24,897 nucleotides of DNA from a virus, in UHGV virus genome UHGV-0147584; one strand, 5' to 3'. The notes below the pieces were generated by a model. The model was given only the letters and a program-made list of their open reading frames with translations, ran no database searches and had not been told where the DNA came from. A program made the translations under genes and the position numbers. Positions within the stretch are counted from its first letter, which is position 1. Each line of letters starts with the position of its first letter. This document shows positions 8,677-24,897 of the stretch, in pieces.

Positions 8677-9183
8677 TTAAGAGATTTTCAAAGTCTGCTT
8701 AGTGCCAGTCTTCTTAATGTTATTGAGGAAAGCTGCCGGAGGATTGCTTAACCAATAGTAATGAAAACCACTTTGCATACTGTTATAAGGAACAGTGACA
8801 GCAGCACCACCCAAATTAACGGTTATATTCCCCGCTCTACCGTTCTGGAGATATACAGCCATAGTAGGAGTACCACCATTGAATTGACCAACGATAACGC
8901 CAATCAGACGGCCTACGCCCACGTTTTCGGGGTTCTCCATAGTTCCTTTACTGCGCATATCAGTTACAGGATAGTTTGAAGCAGTTACACCCCAATTATT
9001 ACCCAATGACGTAGACCACGCAGCAGTAGCTACAACCGTATCCATACCACGACCAGCCATTGCCGACATATTACGCGGAGCCGGAACTTTTAAAGCTGTT
9101 AATGCTTCTTTCATCCATCGCTTACCCGTCACTGATACAGCCGATGACCCGATCCAGCCGGGAACTTTAACGACATTTGCCAT
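8677..9183 (-). CDS. hypothetical virion-associated protein (Gly/Ala/Thr-rich)
   Basis: 168-aa ORF, ATG 9181-9183 preceded by GGAG; sits between a terminator and the G chaperone gene. No family recognised. Confidence 0.45.
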   Translation of the reverse strand: MANVVKVPGWIGSSAVSVTGKRWMKEALTALKVPAPRNMSAMAGRGMDTVVATAAWSTSLGNNWGVTASNYPVTDMRSKGTMENPENVGVGRLIGVIVGQFNGGTPTMAVYLQNGRAGNITVNLGGAAVTVPYNSMQSGFHYYWLSNPPAAFLNNIKKTGTKQTLKIS

Positions 9184-9198
9184 TTTGATTACTCCAAT

Positions 9199-9226
9199 AA
9201 AAAAGCCCCACCATTAAGGCAGGGCT
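9199..9226 (-). terminator. intrinsic terminator after the 158-aa gene and its extension
   Basis: Minus-strand RNA: GC-rich hairpin GCCCUGCC..GGUGGGGC followed by UUUUUU. Nearly identical to the terminator at 15123-15150. Confidence 0.7.
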
Positions 9227-9231
9227 TATAA

Positions 9232-9357
9232 TTAATCTTTAGCCTTGCGGCTTCGTTTAGCTGTGGCTTTCGCCGTAACTTCTTCTACTTCTGGAATCAC
9301 TACCGCTTCATGTTCCGGCTGTGGTTCAGGTTCCGGTAAAGGAAGTTCTTCGTTAGT
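9232..9357 (-). other. in-frame 41-codon extension behind the UGA stop of the 158-aa gene (candidate readthrough segment)
   Basis: Hand translation from 9357 down, in frame with the upstream ORF: TNEELPLPEPEPQPEHEAVVIPEVEEVTAKATAKRSRKAKD, then TAA at 9232-9234. Confidence 0.5.
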
Positions 9358-9834
9358 TCATCCGGCAGTGTTGAAGATTTCCTGTTTCAGCGGAGCACCA
9401 TCAACAGCAAAGGTAAATTCTTTAGTTACCACTTCTTCATCGCCACCGTTCATAGCAACTTTAGAAATAAAGCCGTTGAAAGCGGTGCGAATACCAGTCT
9501 GTTTTGCTGCGTCAACATAGTATTCAATTTTAATCTGAATACGGGTTCCATCTTCGGCAGCCTTAATAAGACGCTCATGCACGGTATCCCCGGGAATATA
9601 ATTAACGGTCAGAGTCAGATCAGGAACGTTCAGTTTACCTACCAGCTTGCGGTTATACTGAGAAGAGAAGGATTTAACTTCTACAGTACCGCGCTCGATA
9701 CCAGTTTCAGGGAAACCAGCACACTCTTTAATTTCTTCATAGCTTTCATGATCGAGAGCGGTGTTAGTGGTATCGGCGTGATAGAACATACTTACCAGAC
9801 CACCAGTAAAAATATCTTTGAATTGTTGAGACAT
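9358..9834 (-). CDS. putative tail tube-fold protein (candidate major tail protein)
   Basis: 158-aa ORF with SD AAGGGG. A segment (GKLNVPDLTLTVNYIPGD...LIKAAEDGT...IEY) is paralogous to the 277-aa protein at 13552-14385. Ends in TGA followed by an in-frame extension and terminator. Confidence 0.5.
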   Translation of the reverse strand: MSQQFKDIFTGGLVSMFYHADTTNTALDHESYEEIKECAGFPETGIERGTVEVKSFSSQYNRKLVGKLNVPDLTLTVNYIPGDTVHERLIKAAEDGTRIQIKIEYYVDAAKQTGIRTAFNGFISKVAMNGGDEEVVTKEFTFAVDGAPLKQEIFNTAG

Positions 9835-9864
9835 ATAATTACCCCTTAATTAAATTTGTTATAA

Positions 9865-9883
9865 CGGGGGAACTAGTCCCCCG
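9865..9883 (-). promoter_or_regulatory. GC hairpin between the fibre gene and the 158-aa gene
   Basis: cgggggA-acuag-Uccccg, 7-bp stem; on the minus strand it follows the fibre stop and precedes the SD of the next gene. Possible weak terminator or mRNA-stability element. Confidence 0.5.
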
Positions 9884-9890
9884 ACTTTTA

Positions 9891-12800
9891 TTATTTAGTT
9901 GCTTTCAGTTCGGCAATCTCTTTATGTAATGCTTCGATCTGCGCTTTATATTTGGCGTCCATTTCCTGCATAGCTTTGATGATTAAAGCATTGACAGCAG
10001 AGTTAGAAATAGTCTTGATTGCTTCTGGATGTTCTGGATCTTCGGTAGATTGAATACCTACTGCTTCCGGCAATACTTTTTCCAGATCCTGAGCAATAAT
10101 ACCTACTTCGCGTTTAATTACCGTGTCATCAGAAAGAGATTTAACTTTATCGTAGGTGTATACTTTCAGGGAGTTTACTTTCTCTAATGCACCGTCCTGT
10201 AATTCTTCCTTGTTAATTTTCAGACGAGAGTCAGAGCGAATGTAAACATCGTTAAAGCTACCGTTACGACCTGCCGTCATGTCACCGGATGCGTTAAAGT
10301 CAAAGACGGCATCATGAACATGGAGACGAACAAGAGCGTTACCGATAGTACCGCTAGGAACGTGTACACCCATTGCGGCGATATGATATTTACCTTGATG
10401 GGTTGCTTTCCAGATGTTATGAGCGGAATCGGTTGATTGCTGGCAGTCGACCTGAATACCGGAAGCACGATCACGCCAGCTAGCCCAACTACCACCAGCA
10501 ACGCTACCACGAATAAGACCATTACCGCCACCGGATACAGTGCCCGTTTCAAGGTGAATCATCTTACCGCCGAATTTCCAGACTTCGGCTTGTTTCTCAC
10601 CGCGCATACGCATAACACCAGCATCATCGCAGTACAACAGACCCAACTCTAAGCCGTTTGGATCTCTAAACCATAAATGCTTGTTACCAGTGCGCTTAAA
10701 CTCAATATCAGCACCATTCAGGGTGATATTGCCTCCAGTGTGGATTGCTTTAGGCTTAACAGTACCGTTAATAGCAAACTCGATTAATTCAGTACCAGGA
10801 CCGCCAGCACGTTGGGTATACCAGTGCCAACCGCTTTCATCAGCACATTCAAACACTTGTTTACGAGCATCAGCGCCCCATGCACGAATATTAAACGTAG
10901 AAGTTGCAGTACCTTTACCCCAGCGAATTTGTCCAGCAGCTTCTAAATCACCGAAGAATTTAGTTTTAATCGCACCAGTTGCTAAAGTACGTTCAGTGGT
11001 GAAGTGTGCACCTTTGCTATCGTCAAGCTGTAAGATATTATCACGAGCGTTATTGCTATCGCCCCAATGGTTAAACCGGAAGTAGTCGCGAGAATTTAAT
11101 CGACCAGCATCAAAGGTTAACATTCCTTTACCGACGTAAATATCACCAGCAAATCGAGCAGCACGGCTATCTCGTTCGAGAACTAATGCACCCTCGTTAC
11201 CATCACCACCTAAAGTAACTTTACCAGTCGTCAAATCGTAAATGAATGGTCGGTTGCCGTTCCAGCCACCAAATTTATCATTTTCGGCAGTTGAAAGAAG
11301 ATAAACTTTACCACCATCATTACGCCAGAATGCACCGTAGTTACCGTAAATCATACGGAATGCATCACTGTTAGCAGCTACATATTGTCCGTTTGAGTAA
11401 ACAATTTTTGTTTTACCAGTGGATAATGAAACTTGACCGTTCTCATCCAGTCTTACAGAGTTATTACCTTCCGTTAATTCATTTACTAACTGTACAGTGT
11501 TAGTAGTACCATCACCATAACCTAGATAACCCTGACGACGATTAGCACCAGAACGATAATCAAAGAATTCGATATAGTTACTTTGCCCGTCGCGGCGTTC
11601 CATTCTAATAGCGTTATTACCCTTAACAAAAAGGCGGTTTACAGTAACACCATTAAAATCAATTTTTAATTGATCCGCTGTATCAGTAACACCAGTAGCT
11701 AAACGATAGACACTACCTTCAACAACTTCATGCCAAATTGTTTCGGCTGATTTGCTACGGAATTTACGAAGATATTTTTTATTTGTATCAGTTGAGTTAT
11801 TCAGACTGATAATATCATATGTTCCTTGACCGTTATTATCGAACATCAACGTTCCGGCTTTGTTTTCGGTGTTGAACATCGTAATAACACGAGCATCAGT
11901 AACACCAACAGAAGGTTTAACGAGAGTTAATTCAGGAACATCATGTACTGTTAACGAAACATCACTAGTTTTACCATATTCGACAATAACGTTATCGGTA
12001 TAACGACCGTAGTTTACGTAAATGTCGTAGTTATCACCGGAAGTATTAACCGCAAATACTTGATGGACATTCAAAGAATTTCGACGATAAGCAGCAATAC
12101 TAACGCCTTTCGGGTTATTGTTACCGGAACGGATAACAATTTCTACAAAATCAACCTGATCATAGGAGTTAACGTTATAGCCGTTACCACCGAAGATACG
12201 AAGCATTACCATTCGACCATTCTGTGGGATCGTGGCGGTTGCAATCTTGAAGTATCCACGAGAAGCATCACCAGACGGAACAGACATTTTCACGTTCTTG
12301 ATGAACATCTGGTCAACTGCGGCCTTGCTATACACACCCAATTCATCAGGAGTCGGCTTATCACCTTCATGGTACATGCGATAGCTGAATCTCTTGTTAC
12401 CGTCCTTATCAAAGCCATAGGTTTTAACCTGAGATGAGCTAGACCCATAATGGAACTCAAAGCCGCGACCGTGTGCTTTACCGCCAGAATGAGGAATGTT
12501 AAGGATTAAGTTACCCCAGCCTTCGGCATTGTTCGGACGAAACGCACCAAAATAATCAAGGTTACGAGCACCAGCATCATCAAAATAGTTAGCGGTCTTG
12601 CTTAACAGATAGCCATGATGATAAGTGTTGGTATTCTTCTTGATGTAAAGAGCATCGTTGCTACCTTCAATACCATCAATTCGACGGTTAGCGGCTGCAA
12701 TCGCTGCATCTGCATCGGTCTTGTTTTTGTCTACCTTCGCGTTAATGGCGGTATGATTGCTATTAACAGTGTTGGTTAAGTTGGTGATCTTCGTATCAGC

Positions 12801-13478
12801 GTCTTTCTTGTTATTCGCTACCGTAGTTTCAATGGCTGATTTGTTAGCCGCAACGGTACTCGTTAAGCTGGAGATCTTAGAATCAGCATCAGACTTGTTA
12901 GCTGTAACGGTTTTGGTCATATTGCTAACATTGGTGTTGGTGGCATCAACACGGCTATTGATCGCGGTGTTATTGTCATTAACCGTAGTGGTTAAAGCTG
13001 AGATTTTATTGTCCGCGTCTCGTTTGTTATTCGCTACGGTAGTTTCAATAGCTGATTTGTTTGCCGCAACAGTGTTAGTTAAAGTGGTATGTTTGCTGTC
13101 AGCGTCGGTTTTATTTGCCGTAACTGTCTGGGTTAAGTTACTAACATTGGTGTTAGTAGCATCAATGCGCTTATTGGTTGCTGTATCTTTCGTGTTAATA
13201 GTGTTATTCAGTTCAGATTTAGCGGTAGCCAGAGCGTTAGCAGCTTCGGTTTTATTTGCCGCAATAACACGATCCGTGTTGGTTTTGTTTGTGTCTACTT
13301 TAGTGTTAAGTTCAGCGTGTTTTTCTGGGGAAACGCTGATTTGAACTACTGCGTTATTTTTGTCTTTCGTGTAAATTACGTGGTCGGCAAGGTTAATAGC
13401 TACCTCACCCTGTGCCAGTTGTTCCGGCGTTGGCTTTTTACCAGCCGTCTGTGTGCGTTTAAATTGGATTGATTGCAT
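9891..13478 (-). CDS. side / L-shaped tail fibre with C-terminal intramolecular chaperone (peptidase S74-like) domain
   Basis: 1195-aa ORF. Conserved fibre N-terminus (MQSIQFKRTQTAGKKPTPEQLAQGEVAINLADHVIYTKD), tandem shaft repeats, and a C-terminal ~114 aa beginning RSDSRLK that resembles the autocleaving chaperone of phage T5 pb1 / K1F endosialidase. Stop TAA. Confidence 0.8.
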   Translation of the reverse strand: MQSIQFKRTQTAGKKPTPEQLAQGEVAINLADHVIYTKDKNNAVVQISVSPEKHAELNTKVDTNKTNTDRVIAANKTEAANALATAKSELNNTINTKDTATNKRIDATNTNVSNLTQTVTANKTDADSKHTTLTNTVAANKSAIETTVANNKRDADNKISALTTTVNDNNTAINSRVDATNTNVSNMTKTVTANKSDADSKISSLTSTVAANKSAIETTVANNKKDADTKITNLTNTVNSNHTAINAKVDKNKTDADAAIAAANRRIDGIEGSNDALYIKKNTNTYHHGYLLSKTANYFDDAGARNLDYFGAFRPNNAEGWGNLILNIPHSGGKAHGRGFEFHYGSSSSQVKTYGFDKDGNKRFSYRMYHEGDKPTPDELGVYSKAAVDQMFIKNVKMSVPSGDASRGYFKIATATIPQNGRMVMLRIFGGNGYNVNSYDQVDFVEIVIRSGNNNPKGVSIAAYRRNSLNVHQVFAVNTSGDNYDIYVNYGRYTDNVIVEYGKTSDVSLTVHDVPELTLVKPSVGVTDARVITMFNTENKAGTLMFDNNGQGTYDIISLNNSTDTNKKYLRKFRSKSAETIWHEVVEGSVYRLATGVTDTADQLKIDFNGVTVNRLFVKGNNAIRMERRDGQSNYIEFFDYRSGANRRQGYLGYGDGTTNTVQLVNELTEGNNSVRLDENGQVSLSTGKTKIVYSNGQYVAANSDAFRMIYGNYGAFWRNDGGKVYLLSTAENDKFGGWNGNRPFIYDLTTGKVTLGGDGNEGALVLERDSRAARFAGDIYVGKGMLTFDAGRLNSRDYFRFNHWGDSNNARDNILQLDDSKGAHFTTERTLATGAIKTKFFGDLEAAGQIRWGKGTATSTFNIRAWGADARKQVFECADESGWHWYTQRAGGPGTELIEFAINGTVKPKAIHTGGNITLNGADIEFKRTGNKHLWFRDPNGLELGLLYCDDAGVMRMRGEKQAEVWKFGGKMIHLETGTVSGGGNGLIRGSVAGGSWASWRDRASGIQVDCQQSTDSAHNIWKATHQGKYHIAAMGVHVPSGTIGNALVRLHVHDAVFDFNASGDMTAGRNGSFNDVYIRSDSRLKINKEELQDGALEKVNSLKVYTYDKVKSLSDDTVIKREVGIIAQDLEKVLPEAVGIQSTEDPEHPEAIKTISNSAVNALIIKAMQEMDAKYKAQIEALHKEIAELKATK
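12735..13170 (-). repeat. two tandem ~216-bp (72-aa) repeats in the fibre shaft
   Basis: Protein repeat RIDATNTNVSNLTQTVTANKTDADSKHTTLTNTVAANKSAIETTVANNKRDADNKISALTTTV versus RVDATNTNVSNMTKTVTANKSDADSKISSLTSTVAANKSAIETTVANNKKDADTKITNLTNTV; DNA copies are near-identical over long stretches. Confidence 0.8.
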
Positions 13479-14394: not shown

Positions 14395-14796
14395 TTAAAA
14401 ACGCGCTAGATAAGAAAATTTAAGGCTAAGTGTCCCAACGATACCCCCATCACTAGAATCATCGTCATAATCGGTATTAGAAGCGACTGGAGTTATATCT
14501 GAAATGGAGAAGCCCAAATCTTTAAAACGTGGGTTATCTGGCTGAATCTGGATTATCTGGCAAATACCCTCATGAATTTTGGTTTCATGAATCTGAGAAT
14601 ATAATTGCATTTCGATAACGCATTCAGCTTGCATTGCATTACCACCACGGACCCTAGTGTAAGTCTCATTCATTCCGGTAATCCAACACACCACGTCATC
14701 GCTAAAACCAGTTTGAGTTTGTTCTACGTTTAAAGCCAGACCTAGATCTTGTTCGATAATATCCTGTAAAGCACGTTTAATCTTAAGACGTGGCAT
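14395..14796 (-). CDS. neck / tail-completion protein (hypothetical)
   Basis: ORF frame extends to 14823, but the ATG at 14794-14796 lies 4 nt after the upstream stop (coupled start). Position corresponds to lambda Z/U. Confidence 0.45.
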   Translation of the reverse strand: MPRLKIKRALQDIIEQDLGLALNVEQTQTGFSDDVVCWITGMNETYTRVRGGNAMQAECVIEMQLYSQIHETKIHEGICQIIQIQPDNPRFKDLGFSISDITPVASNTDYDDDSSDGGIVGTLSLKFSYLARF

Positions 14797-14800
14797 ATTA

Positions 14801-15091
14801 TTAACGGTAGCGAGCATGAGCACCCCCTGCTAAAGTGATAAAGCAATCACTGGTATTGTCACCATTGCGCTTAATGTATTGAACTTTGAAACGCTGATTT
14901 TCTACAATGACAATATCACCTTGCTTTAAATCTCCCTCACGACAGAATAAGAATTCTGATTCTGTCCATACCCCTTGCTCGTCGGTAGTGGTAATTTCAT
15001 GGTAAGCACGAATTGATTTACCACCTTCCACGACAAAAACAGGAGCACTTCGGAACATTCTTGATAATTGTGATTCGGTTAATTTGAACAT
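14801..15091 (-). CDS. head-tail joining / head completion protein (hypothetical)
   Basis: 96-aa ORF immediately after the capsid gene terminator, SD AAGGGGG; size and position match the FII-like head completion slot. Confidence 0.45.
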   Translation of the reverse strand: MFKLTESQLSRMFRSAPVFVVEGGKSIRAYHEITTTDEQGVWTESEFLFCREGDLKQGDIVIVENQRFKVQYIKRNGDNTSDCFITLAGGAHARYR

Positions 15092-19379: not shown

Positions 19380-21284
19380 TTAGAACGATGTTACCCAGCT
19401 ACGGCCTCTATTTGGGCGTCTGGCGATGTTTTTACGTTGTGGTCGTGTGATTGGCTTATTTTCTTCGATTTGCTCGTCAGATTGCGATTTAGGAGCTTTT
19501 ACGGGTTCTTCGACAACACGGTTTAAGCTGTCTTTCATTGCGATGAGTTTATCCCATGACATTTTTGAAAGGACGTAGCGAGAAGCCGCTGTAGCATACA
19601 CGGCGCAGTCGAGCGCCTCGTTCCTAACGCCTGGGTTCTTTACCCATCTCACGCCAGTAGTAGTACGCTTGACAGATTCACTTAAAAGCTGATCGAGATA
19701 ATCATCAGGAACGGTGTCTGATATTTCTAAGCCAATATGAGGATTATCTTTCAGGTTCCTAGCCAACATTTCACGAAATGCAGTTTTACCCACATTAACA
19801 CCCAACATAAGCAATTCATGACCACCTGTGCGGGTAGGTTTAACCGGAATGATCGGAGCGTTACCAGCAGAACTACCTTTGATAGCGTGTAAGTTCTTCC
19901 ACTTGCCGCAAATACGGTATCCAGCTTGAGTGAATCGACCGTTCGATGTATCAAGGAAGCTGGCGAGCATAGGAACACGATCACCCGATACAGTAGTAAA
20001 TCTGGTTTTATGGAAGTTGATTAATCTATCCCATACAGGGGATTCATATCGTTCACAGTTATGATCGTAAAAGCTGCGGTGATCCAGAATATAAATCTTA
20101 TCCTTTGCCACGCCCATGATTGTAGTTTCTGCGCGATCTAATTGCTGGTCAGTACCCGCACACAAGAAAATCACGTCATCAGGGATATTCTCGATAGAAA
20201 CATCTGTTTTGAGTTGTTCCAGTTCATTTGCTTCTACTGCCGTGTCCTGATCGTCGTATACCTTGCCTAACACGGTGTTATAAAATGATTGTAAATCAAA
20301 GGATTGCCACGCATGACTAAAATCAACCACACAAGCGCGGATCGTGCTGAAAGGTGAATACAGACGGCTGATCCAGAATCCTGCTACTTCACTTTCACGG
20401 GTTGCTCTCCACTCGCCTTGTGCTACTGCCCTGATTCGTTCCCCTTCGGTCCATGCGTTCTTACAGTGGGGGCAAATATAACGAGCGGTATCAGGATCGG
20501 GTAAGTTCTTACCATCGATGTTACGCCATTCAAACTGTACGTTTTCCCACTCGATCACCTGGTGTCTACCGCAATGAGGACACGGAACAAAAAACATACG
20601 CATATCACTTGATAACCATTGCTGGTTAATGCTTCCGAGCTTACTGGTCGGGGTACTGGATACGACTAATCGGCCTTCATCGCCAAAGGTAGTTAAACGG
20701 TTAGCAGCCAGTGCCACCGGATCACCTTCTTCTGAGGCTGTAGCAGCATCGATTTCGTCAAGCAATCCAACCTTTGCGGTCTTACCGCGTAGGGTTGATG
20801 GACTAGTAAGCGATACCATATAAAGGAAGTGGTTTGATTTGAGCTGGAGCTGATTGTTGTTATTAACAGAATTGCGATCATTCTTGTCTGTAACCACGTC
20901 TTTTAATGCATCACATGCTTCGATAGACGGTCGGATCTTACCCGCGAGATATTGAGACATTTCTTTAGCGGTTGATTGTCCGATAATCATATTGCATGGA
21001 TCGTTAGCCATCTGGTTAAACAGGATGCCGTTCAAGATGGTAGTCTTTCCGATCTGCGCACTGGTCATCAGAACATACTTTTTCTTGTTCTCAAGGAAAG
21101 GAGCATCAATCATACCTTTCTGGAATGACAGCAATTTAACTTTATCCCCAGCTTGAGGACCATCTACCAGCACCATATTCGCTTCGCACCATTCAGAAGG
21201 AAGGAGCTTAGGCGGTGGCGTAATATATTTGGCTGCATTTTTGAGAATCTTTTTTAATTTGGCCTTATTTGAAATCAGTTTCAT
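19380..21284 (-). CDS. terminase large subunit, lambda gpA family
   Basis: 634-aa ORF. Walker A-like TSAQIGKTT, paired CPHCG...CPHC motifs, [11 protein letters not shown] and [11 protein letters not shown] segments closely resembling lambda gpA as recalled. SD GAGGGT. Stop TAA. Confidence 0.9.
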
Positions 21285-21972: not shown

Positions 21973-22007
21973 TATTGAGAAATCACTATTGTTTGGAGGA
22001 AACTACT

Positions 22008-22235
22008 ATGACTACTAAAGCTACTCGCGGTCGCCCTGCCCGTTTTAACGCTGAACAGATGGCTGATATTGCCTACGCTTACTATACAGCGGATCGTGGT
22101 AAGGAAGCGAAAGAACAGATTCTTAGTGAACATGGGATCTCAATCGCCCAATTCTATAAGAATATGAAGAAGTTAGACATTAAATTCTATGTTCAGATCG
22201 GTGATGGTCAGATCGTAGAAGCAACAGGTTTTTGA
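22008..22235 (+). CDS. small DNA-binding protein (RGRP motif plus HTH-like C-terminus)
   Basis: ATG 22008 is preceded by GGAGGA at 7 nt (the ORF track begins at an upstream TTG). Sequence MTTKATRGRPARF...HGISIAQFYKNMKKLDIKF. Stop TGA. Confidence 0.5.
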   Translation: MTTKATRGRPARFNAEQMADIAYAYYTADRGKEAKEQILSEHGISIAQFYKNMKKLDIKFYVQIGDGQIVEATGF

Positions 22236-23798: not shown

Positions 23799-24251
23799 TT
23801 ACAGCATATCTAAGCCTTCATCGTAACCGTAGAAGCCATTCTGAGAAGAGAAACAGATTGGCGCGTAGTCGTCGTCATCTTCGTCTTGTTCATCTCGTTC
23901 TGGGGCTTCCTGAGCGGGTTGTTTACCATAATCAGCCATAATCTGGTCAAGATCGGCGATCCCATAGTAAGAGCCTAAATCAACGTCATATTCACGAACA
24001 TCAAACGGCAGGTCATCACGAACAATAATTGCCGGAATGTTGTTGTATTGTTCACGACCTTCATCAGTAAAGCAGTCTACGATCACCGTAGGGCGACCAT
24101 TACGTTTAAGAGCATAGAAAGCAGTTGAGAAATTGGAGTCTTCGGAATGACGAATGATGTTATAACCACGATTAGCGAAAACATGCATCATAGCCAGATT
24201 ATCATCATGGTTCAGACCCAGAAGAATGAAAGGAGTTTTAGTATTGATCAT
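23799..24251 (-). CDS. hypothetical protein with strongly acidic C-terminal tail
   Basis: 150-aa ORF, SD AGAGGA. Alternating hydrophobic strands (FILLGL, YNIIRH, TVIVDCF, AIIVRD) suggest an alpha/beta fold; C-terminal ERDEQDEDDDDY. No family recognised. Confidence 0.5.
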   Translation of the reverse strand: MINTKTPFILLGLNHDDNLAMMHVFANRGYNIIRHSEDSNFSTAFYALKRNGRPTVIVDCFTDEGREQYNNIPAIIVRDDLPFDVREYDVDLGSYYGIADLDQIMADYGKQPAQEAPERDEQDEDDDDYAPICFSSQNGFYGYDEGLDML

Positions 24252-24502
24252 AGTGGAAATCCTCTAAAAAAGTGAATCAAAGTAAGTTCACTATTATTTA
24301 TAACGAGAAATTTTTGTCTAATTTGAAAGGAATTGGTATTCAGTCGGCTTCGCCTCCTTCATAGATTTTGATTAAATCATCATCAAAACGAAGAAGTATC
24401 TTTAGAATATAAGAATCTTTCTTTTGGAGAAATAATAATCAGGAAGCAATTTAGCAACCGAAGGTTGCAATCCCGAAGGGATACCAATACCTTTCATGAT
24501 CA

Positions 24503-24750
24503 TTAAAGTGATCTAGAATCATCTAGTAACCAGTTAACTACTATTATCTTCAAAGTGATTATTACTATCTTTCTAGAATCAGTTAGTAACTAATTTAAAA
24601 TCCCTTTCAAGAAAATCCTTTCAGAAGTGATTCTCGATGCCACGCAGTGGCGTCGCAGACGTTTGAGAGTGAGCGAAGCGAGCGAGCAAACTAGTTAATT
24701 CCTTCTAAGACCATCTAGTATCATCTAGTTTAAATTAGTGTTACTAGAAG
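24503..24750. repeat. iteron-like direct and inverted repeats built on CTAG cores in noncoding DNA
   Basis: aaagtgatctagaatcatctagtaac (24505-24530), aaagtgatt...tctagaatcagttagtaac (24552-24590), atctagtatcatctagtt..gttactag (24713-24746), plus palindromes GTTAAC and AACTAGTT. No ORF in the track covers this region. Confidence 0.6.
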
Positions 24751-24897
24751 TAATTGGTTAGCGCTTCGCGCAGTCGGGCTACGCCCTCCTAATATCTTTT
24801 TGGTTATTTGTTGTTTTTGGTTTTACACATGAGCGTAGCGAATGTGTTATATAATATCTATGCACGCCCGATCCCCCGTTTTTGCCCCTCACTAAGT

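Follow-up and report, generated by a model that had tools for sequence, protein, structure and literature searches.

A conserved cluster of C(GNA)G mini-hairpins in gene-free DNA between predicted divergent promoters of a temperate Escherichia coli prophage

Our analysis concerns the right end of a 24,897-nt stretch of viral DNA, UHGV virus genome UHGV-0147584 (the window, by which we mean the whole stretch analysed). The window is part of a temperate E. coli prophage of ~37.6 kb, whose insertion splits ycdX (strain 14EC007). A preliminary description made from the letters of the window had called the element a phage, rightly, and it can now be specified as a prophage. From position 24252 to ~740 bp past the window end (1386 bp in total in the complete prophage) the DNA is free of genes, and this stretch carries nine very short hairpins (24346-24847), every one of them a GNA triloop closed by a C-G pair. 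Open reading frames (ORFs) in the hairpin zone are only 30-37 aa long and the hairpin variants of relatives differ by 2-3 nt in length, which bears out the earlier view of this DNA as noncoding. The zone lies between divergent promoters, those of a leftward ORF150-Rha operon and of a rightward operon with a helix-turn-helix (HTH) gene and a gene for a 313-aa protein.

All nine hairpins (Table 1) are built alike, with a G-N-A loop, a C-G closing pair and a short G+C-rich stem; six have the loop on the plus strand and three on the minus strand. Every mini-hairpin previously listed was present, with positions correct to within 1-2 nt, and the clustering proved stronger than had been claimed. Specifically, six C(GNA)G hairpins with a stem of at least 4 bp were observed, compared with a mean of 0.0115 and a maximum of one in 2000 dinucleotide shuffles of 24252-24897. 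When all triloop hairpins of the 24.9-kb window were considered (n = 18), the C(GNA)G type made up 6/6 inside the region and 0/12 elsewhere. The GNA loops lie on the plus strand at 24454-24683 and on the minus strand at 24761-24786, from which 24346 (-) and 24831 (+) deviate. One further C(GNA)G hairpin was found in the rest of the 37.6-kb prophage, upstream of the gene for a protein resembling small terminase subunits (TerS-like). This hairpin, GTCGC-GTA-GCGAC, is located at L026 18923-18935 in the 360-bp gap between the TerS-like gene and attR, which might be another place where a packaging or recombination site is to be expected.

DNA hairpins of the C-GNA-G or d(GCGNAGC) class are extraordinarily stable, resist nucleases and are bound poorly by single-strand-binding protein (SSB) (PMC13037366). 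Stable mini-hairpins with GNA loops occur at the G4 origin, at ssiA of RSF1010 (CCGAAGG) and at the N4 promoter (PMC13037366). The words GCGAAGC, GCGTAGC and CCGAAGG (twice) all occur in our region, and GCGAAGC, contained in GTGAGCGAAGCGAGC, has tandem G.A (GA/GA) on its flanks, with G-C and T.G as closing pairs.

Absence of the hairpins from relatives had been named beforehand as a finding that would refute the preliminary interpretation, and this refutation fails. Across forty-odd related loci, the hairpins are kept at the same slots, with stems that differ and loops that are mostly GNA. The slot at 24346 holds GGC-TTC-GCC, GGGC-AAA-GCCC, GGGC-TAAA-GCCC or GGGC-ATA-GCCC. At slot 24454 the stem is kept with a GAA or GCA loop (GCA in L022/L025), and in L016 the hairpin is replaced by GACGCTC-CCT-GAGCGTC plus TGC-GAA-GCA. 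Slots 24639-24786 occur as two alleles that are unrelated in sequence and equal in layout and strand pattern (+ + + ... - -). Allele one reads GCCAC-GCA-GTGGC, CGTC-GCA-GACG, GAGCGAAGCGA, GCGC-TTC-GCGC and GGGC-TAC-GCCC, and allele two ACGCC-GTA-GGCGT, GAGCGAAGCGA, CCTG-CTTG-CAGG, GCGC-TTC/TAC-GCGC and ACGGC-TAC-GCCGT; the alternative allele of GTGAGCGAAGCGAGC reads GTGAGCGAAGCGAAC, in which T.G becomes T-A. Among the distinct triloop hairpins of the family, 10/13 have GNA/TNC loops, compared with ~1/8 by chance (our own estimate). The stems are thus free to change, with hairpin, loop type and strand kept, and the comparison demonstrates selection for the structure and for the GNA loop.

The hairpins stand in AT-rich DNA and are surrounded by 15-bp boxes, 10-bp phased repeats and an iteron array (Table 1). 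The exact core of the box, RAAGKRATT, has nine matches in the window, six of which fall inside a 430-bp stretch of the hairpin zone, and in the relative L020 an inverted pair of boxes forms a perfect 21-bp palindrome that by its sequence looks like a dimeric operator. Directly past the window end (L026 15632-15833) lie ~11 direct, irregularly spaced iteron copies, TTTCAGGGGCAAAAAT, which together with the inverted copy at 24874-24889 make up a direct-repeat array of the kind expected of an iteron-type origin. The iteron type is wholly different among related prophages (the window prophage, L020 and L016), being GGGGCAAAA about 11 times, GTGTAGGTTT about eight times or ACGGGGA about 18 times, with conserved flanks. 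Such swapping of iterons between conserved flanks would be as expected of an exchangeable specificity determinant. GTGTAGG is also found within the spacer of a rightward promoter (L026 15860-15888). Within the hairpin-bearing unit near the window end, TTTACA (24822-24827) is followed by TGTTAT after 17 nt and by TATAAT (24850-24855) after 22 nt. A site scan of the region returned one strict DnaA-box match, TTTTACACA at 24820-24828, overlapping the 17-mer CATGAGCGTAGCGAATG (24828-24844), and no IHF consensus. A XerCD (dif/cer) site was considered by eye near 24845-24875 and dropped, with 8/11 positions fitting in the XerC arm and no fit in the XerD arm.

Table 1 Features of the hairpin region, in window coordinates
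Feature	Position	Strand	Remarks
Sigma-70-like promoter TAGACA-16-AATAAT	24293..24320	-	reads leftward into ORF150 (23799-24251), ORF110 and a Rha-family gene
Imperfect palindrome	24324..24496		37-nt arms 24324-24360 / 24460-24496, 76% complementary
15-bp box, GAAAGKRATTGGTAT-like, eight copies	24325..24761	both	starts 24325(+), 24481(-), 24505(+), 24552(+), 24596(-), 24612(-), 24624(+), 24747(+)
GGC-TTC-GCC	24346-24354	-	GAA loop on minus strand; absent from the preliminary list
71-bp AT-rich palindromic cassette, GATTAA...TAATC	24370..24440	+	centre of the long palindrome
GCAACC-GAA-GGTTGC	24454-24468	+	tandem partner of 24470-24482; contains CCGAAGG
ATCCC-GAA-GGGAT	24470-24482	+	contains CCGAAGG
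10-bp phased ATCTAG-type direct repeats (TCTAGAATCATCTAGTA family)	24511..24737	+	copies 24512, 24572, 24704, 24714
GCCAC-GCA-GTGGC	24639-24651	+	abuts hairpin 24651-24661
CGTC-GCA-GACG	24651-24661	+	
GCGAAGC	24673-24679	+	inside GTGAGCGAAGCGAGC (24669-24683)
GCGC-TTC-GCGC	24761-24771	-	GAA loop on minus strand
GGGC-TAC-GCCC	24776-24786	-	GTA loop on minus strand
TTTACA-hairpin-TATAAT unit	24822..24855	+	TTTACA 24822-24827, hairpin 24825-24847, TATAAT 24850-24855
ACACAT-GAGCGTAGCGA-ATGTGT	24825-24847	+	absent from the preliminary list
Iteron AGGGGCAAAAA, first copy, inverted	24874..24889	-	at window end

The promoter of ORF150 marks the left edge of an untranscribed spacer. Our promoter scan predicted no sigma-70 promoter reading across 24340-24800, and the flanking promoters are directed outward. 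To the right of the iterons, outside the window, there are two rightward promoters, one of them a perfect TTGACA-18-TATAAT. With this promoter, which also carries TG, L026 15888-16303 holds a ~375-nt leader and a small terminator (GAGCGGTTAACGCTC + T6), followed by the 60-aa HTH gene; the ~375-nt stretch may represent either a leader or a noncoding RNA. For the ORF150, ORF110, ORF200, ORF86, 60-aa HTH and 313-aa proteins, we obtained no informative family, structure or named homologue, and the homologues listed for the neighbouring proteins are all 99-100% identical. The 86-aa protein (window 21975-22235 (+)) and the 60-aa protein (L026 16339-16521 (+)) have an N-terminal RPxKF/RF...-type motif in common; the latter gave a weak, sub-threshold HTH_Tnp_1 match and the former no family match. 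The two look paralogous by sequence, and both are candidates for proteins that bind the repeats.

The last 1.6 kb of the window had matches in 58 of 5426 complete E. coli genomes, all of them chromosomal (best identity 99.5%), and in 16 of the 58 the noncoding region was matched over at least 80% of its length. A lambda-GpA-type large terminase gene (TerL) lies on the minus strand at 19380-21284, followed by portal, capsid and tail genes. The prophage has a large serine recombinase at its left end and the TerS-like gene (phrog_57) at its far right end. Its left arm (L027 12307-15697) encodes a UvsW-type helicase (UvsW_N domain) and two CapR-domain proteins, one with a GIY-YIG/T5orf172 domain. 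Among the non-structural prophage genes scanned, no replicase, primase or CI-type repressor was recognised. The isolated phages in our collection gave no DNA-level match except for the tail-fibre gene and one short noncoding stretch. This tail-fibre gene (1195 aa, window 9891-13478) has ~80% DNA identity to the distal tail fibre gene gp37 of Krischvirus, and for the 168-aa ORF that lies downstream of it (window 8677-9183) the best-matching E. coli genome gives the annotation receptor-recognising protein Gp38. The presence of gp37-like and Gp38 genes here places T4-type adhesin genes inside a temperate phage whose terminase is lambda-type. Strain 14EC007 carries an IS1A insertion directly downstream of the tail-tip gene (L027 17808-18505). 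ARAGORN called a 91-nt tRNA-Gln (anticodon TTG) at window 14540-14630 (+), in the structural gene block and opposite in strand to ORF 14395-14823, which is probably a false positive; it returned nothing for the hairpin region.

The 71-bp cassette at the centre of the long palindrome links the prophage with lytic phages. When the region was compared with phage records, megablast gave zero matches and the distant mode matched an 81-nt cassette core only. The left half of the cassette (CAAAACGAAGAAGTATCTTTAGAATA) has intergenic counterparts of 77-80% identity in 59 phage records; almost all of these are named E. coli or Shigella phages, and those examined belong to Krischvirus (RB49-like). RB49 itself carries the cassette four times at three loci, once ahead of gene 3, once ahead of gene 36 and twice ahead of a DprA-like gene, each copy being ~70 bp long, co-oriented with the downstream gene and followed by mini-hairpins such as CTCC-GTA-GGAG, TCGC-GAA-GCGA and GTGCC-TAC-GGCAC. 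In the RB49 genome, C(GNA)G accounts for 11/92 triloop hairpins, and six of these 11 are located beside cassettes. Folding of the cassette copies indicated no consistent strand preference. In the relatives L011 and L022 the cassette core is swapped for a different sequence of near-equal length, and in L011 this replacement folds into a perfect 13-bp stem (ACATCAAAAGAGA...). When viral contigs were scanned for the exact pattern, with part of the matches checked, the core was found mainly in contigs of the RB49-like and prophage groups. We rejected a small peptide encoded in the cassette, as an 8-codon ORF is present in two RB49 copies and its start codon is absent, by eye, from the window and the other copies.

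The hairpin motif extends further than the cassette. Its general form is a stem, a tandem G.A, two pairs and a GNA loop (GA-xy-GNA-y'x'-GA), as in CATGAGCGNAGCGAATG. The same word, with outer stems that vary, occurs again in a distant relative and in unrelated viral contigs. The 17-mer CATGAGCGTAGCGAATG is found as CATGAGCGAAGCGAATG in two copies in the 1.29-kb gene-free start of phage DCP80, whose TerL shows 44% identity; relative to TerL, the motif points the same way as in the prophage. Within its first 1.03 kb DCP80 also has five further C(GNA)G hairpins with stems of 4 bp or more, and the ~22 kb that follow contain none. ACGAACGAAGTGAG, which fits the general form, is common to DCP80, prophage relatives and contig L113. 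We note that the 141-kb DCP80 record (L002/L028, PQ671644) joins a ~22-kb morphogenetic module with a lambda-type terminase to T4-like genes and has rIIA twice, in opposite orientations; it looks like a chimeric assembly.

Scanning viral contigs for the motif gave 87 loci, some of which are necessarily due to chance. Of the 55 distinct contexts that lie outside the prophage family, 27% show a stem lengthened by three or more contiguous pairs of varied sequence, compared with 4.3% in a flank-swap control. Several of the contigs (L062, L070) have short tandem repeats beside the hairpins, and in the T4-like contig L070 a 1.4-kb gap that separates gp55-like from UvsW-like genes holds eight mini-hairpins. 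Genes beside the motif in other viral contigs (endonuclease VII-like, gp55-like sigma factor, UvsW-like helicase, invertase, terminase) include no common neighbour. Strong promoters near the motif in other phages read it in the sense direction in eight cases and antisense in six, so that there is no strand rule relative to promoters. For the metagenomic contigs L083 and L071 there was no match in the phage collection. In L066, a contig of a giant-virus metagenome-assembled genome, CATGAGCGAAGCGAATG occurs four times at 103-690 with a period of ~190 nt within a tandem repeat, each copy following another G+C-rich hairpin. A literature search with sequence strings returned only primer noise. It is possible, though we consider it doubtful, that C(GNA)G mini-hairpins, often underlaid by G.A pairs, are widespread unnamed cis-acting single-strand signals in the control regions of double-stranded DNA (dsDNA) phages, that they travel with AT-rich palindromic cassettes between lytic T4-type and temperate phages, and that they mark where the host machinery (primosome, helicase or RNA polymerase) engages opened DNA.

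Our tentative reading of the prophage region, held at well under even confidence, is that of an origin-like initiation or control site in which the hairpins act on single-stranded DNA. A stem of only 3-6 bp is too short for extrusion from duplex DNA, which limits the formation of these hairpins to single strands, either of DNA or of RNA. A role in DNA is favoured because no predicted promoter reads across most of the hairpins and the flanking promoters point outward, because the loops belong to the C-GNA-G / GCGNAGC class that is stable in DNA and a poor SSB substrate (PMC13037366), and because there is no strand rule either in the palindromic units or relative to promoters elsewhere. The boxes, phased repeats and iterons around the hairpins point to a protein assembly site on the DNA. 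A cluster beyond chance that is confined to noncoding control DNA, and the combination of repeats with the hairpin motif in the unrelated contigs L062 and L070, count for the same reading. With a UvsW-type helicase and no recognisable replicase, the prophage would have to recruit host priming. We infer origin function and priming along the following lines. Proteins bound to the boxes and iterons, aided by negative supercoiling from the divergent promoters, would open the AT-rich DNA, and the hairpins would fold only after the strands have separated. Once folded, they may act as very stable knobs that bind SSB poorly and keep the bubble open, and may mark sites of primosome or helicase loading or of priming, as has been proposed for the G4 and RSF1010 signals. 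Twin-domain supercoiling at divergent promoters is well established, and by extension it may operate in this spacer.

Several observations weigh against an origin-like site. The neighbouring proteins are ORFans without informative matches, and no initiator gene was recognised; the single strict DnaA box, the missing IHF consensus in the region and the failure to find a phage primase among the genes scanned point the same way. The orientation of the GNA loops has no single-centre switch across the region, and both orientations occur among the RB49 copies. Some unrelated phages have the motif directly downstream of strong promoters, which points to a role in RNA, and the box closest to the ORF150 promoter suggests simple control of transcription. 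The ViennaRNA tables for DNA and for RNA gave equal energies for both strands and no GNA bonus; nearest-neighbour tables have no GNA term and do not separate a DNA from an RNA role. The single-strand priming or initiation zone suggested in the preliminary description is supported in part, with a compatible setting (gene-free DNA, divergent promoters, an iteron array) but without an initiator gene or a DnaA/IHF cluster.

A close rival to the origin-like site is a promoter/stem-loop cassette of the PeSL (promoter-early stem-loop) type, with a weak promoter, an attenuator and hairpins that protect RNA ends, which would also serve as a recombination linker giving mosaic alleles and exchange with T4-type phages; we regard this as possible and somewhat doubtful. 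The four similar RB49 copies, co-oriented with their genes, come after terminators with the hairpins following, and the left half of the cassette with a TAGAAT -10-like hexamer is conserved, the right half varying like a transcribed leader. A stem-loop in or beside the promoter is also present, as the hairpin at 24825-24847 lies between -35-like and -10-like hexamers behind a T-rich tract, as in PeSLs (PMC2839356), and other hairpins follow the cassette. Indels and replacements at the cassette (presence/absence and core replacement in L023, L011 and L022), hairpins that form identity islands between diverged alleles, and a motif that follows strong promoters in L067, L068, L094 and L106 fit this explanation as well. 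However, the scan found no plus-strand promoter in 24320-24860, where the best candidates by eye are TCATCA-17-TAGAAT (8/12) and TTTACA-17-TGTTAT (9/12, lacking A at position 2), and TATAAT stands at a spacing of 22 nt. Published PeSL stems are GGGG...CCCC rather than GNA triloops, RB49 has four copies but the prophage a single one, promoters elsewhere read into the motif both ways, and the hairpins are not intrinsic terminators since no U-tracts follow them. With no consensus sigma-70 promoter and a different stem type, we did not assign the region to the PeSLs.

The other explanations fit less of the evidence. The 8-bp inverted repeat ATTGGTAT (24332-24339) / ATACCAAT (24481-24488), which had been proposed to close a structured RNA of ~160 nt, does exist and belongs to the longer palindrome of Table 1; the closure of an RNA did not hold up, given equal folding of both strands, one-sided variation and arms that are copies of the box. 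A structured noncoding RNA of ~160-175 nt (24324-24496) with the GAA hairpins as internal stems is thus very unlikely in our estimation. The segment does fold far below shuffles (-54.1 kcal/mol, z -5.8), and a few double changes are seen in its core helix in the alleles of L011 and L006. Folding of the opposite strand is just as good (-54.9 kcal/mol, z -5.3), and this is true of the core copies as well. In an alignment of 16 distinct relatives the outer helix is 85% paired and varies one-sidedly, with 7/23 pairs departing by broken cells only; double-sided changes in the whole structure affect five pairs (nine cells), most of them in the inner core. The outer arms represent the 15-bp box in inverted copies; in L023 the palindrome unit is missing entirely, and the break falls between two copies of the box. 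The segment has no predicted promoter that reads into it and lies upstream of the sole nearby promoter, directed away from it, and Rfam 15 gave no match at gathering score (best E = 0.17, 22.6 bits against a gathering score of 44, a eukaryotic snoRNA model). We also consider it unlikely that the region serves DNA packaging as a cos or cosB-like site, with repeats that bind the small terminase subunit and hairpins in the terminase recognition site. In DCP80 the gene-free record start with similar mini-hairpins and the two CATGAGCGAAGCGAATG copies is followed by two small ORFs and TerL, and the morphogenetic module is the only thing found in common between DCP80 and the prophage; as DCP80 looks chimeric, however, its record start says little about a genome end. 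In the prophage, unrelated genes separate the region from TerL (~3 kb away) and from the TerS-like gene (~3.3 kb away), and in unrelated phages the motif stands beside diverse genes. The TerL of L023 is only 59% identical where its noncoding region is 96% identical, so the region is uncoupled from TerL type; neither the adjacency to the terminase genes nor the co-variation with the terminase expected of a lambda-type cos site was found, which weakens this explanation. Finally, the hairpins may have no dedicated function and be by-products of quasi-palindrome (template-switch) mutation and mosaic recombination, with stable GNA hairpins favouring template-switching. Their confinement to gene-free DNA, freely varying stems and a highly mosaic region agree with this, but the slots and the strand pattern are conserved, even between sequence-unrelated alleles, so that it fits the data less well. 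Identical hairpin words are kept between phages with TerL only 44% identical, other intergenic DNA of the prophage has no such hairpins (one exception), and RB49 ties 6/11 of its C(GNA)G hairpins to the cassette; an origin by mutation alone is therefore improbable.

If the hairpins mark replication or priming, they would offer an origin signpost that can be read from sequence in phages without recognisable replication proteins, which is a common annotation gap. If they belong to transcription or recombination cassettes, the mobile-linker idea of the PeSLs would extend to temperate phages and document exchange with T4-type phages. Either way, the region is a compact test bed for the in vivo use of very short DNA hairpins. 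The chemistry of such hairpins and their tie to initiation sites are already known. We did not find described a dense, conserved cluster of them in the control region of a temperate dsDNA phage, the GA-underlaid variant that recurs across unrelated viral contigs, or the 71-bp cassette common to RB49-type lytic phages and an E. coli prophage.

Among known systems, the injection-stop-signal region of T5 (9140-10149, NC_005859) is likewise a kb-scale gene-free stretch with several families of direct and inverted repeats; it was rejected as a homologue, as it has few C(GNA)G hairpins and no sequence similarity and lies in the terminal repeat of a lytic phage. Compared with lambda cos (cosQ-cosN-cosB), the prophage also has a TerL of the GpA family, and in DCP80 the region of repeats and hairpins is directly upstream of the terminase genes, but the prophage region is beside neither terminase gene and is uncoupled from TerL type. 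The PeSLs of RB49/phi1 and T4-type phages (PMC2839356, PMC4122927) are likewise short, repeated intergenic elements of AT-rich DNA with a stem-loop at indels or mosaic joints. They differ in having a consensus sigma-70 promoter and GGGG-loop-CCCC stems, where the prophage has C(GNA)G triloops and a 71-bp palindrome in a single cassette. Iteron origins (RSF1010 oriV, P4 ori/crr, lambda ori) resemble the region in its ~11 irregularly spaced direct repeats, AT-rich DNA and strong promoter, and the change of repeat type between related phages is like that of a specificity determinant; unlike in these origins, no initiator gene or DnaA/IHF cluster was recognised in the prophage region, where origin activity is presumptive.

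Similarity is closest to the hairpins of the G4 origin, RSF1010 ssiA and the N4 promoter (PMC13037366), whose loop and closing-pair chemistry is identical to that of the prophage hairpins. In RSF1010, ssiA and ssiB are located in oriV beside iterons, and the prophage hairpins are likewise clustered in noncoding DNA beside iterons. Unlike these systems, the element is a temperate dsDNA prophage in which no RepB'-type primase or N4-type RNA polymerase was found, and it has nine hairpins over 500 bp on both strands instead of one or two defined signals. For a single-strand initiation signal of the known kind, no cognate primase was present among the scanned genes and the ~130-nt three-hairpin layout of G4 was not recognised. 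An N4-type hairpin promoter was dropped since no RNA polymerase was found; the largest ORFs of the window (~1250 and 1195 aa) are annotated as tail-tip and tail-fibre protein in the best-matching E. coli genome. Stable GNA mini-hairpins, known from a handful of sites, thus occur also in a common prophage, in RB49-type phages and in unrelated viral contigs.

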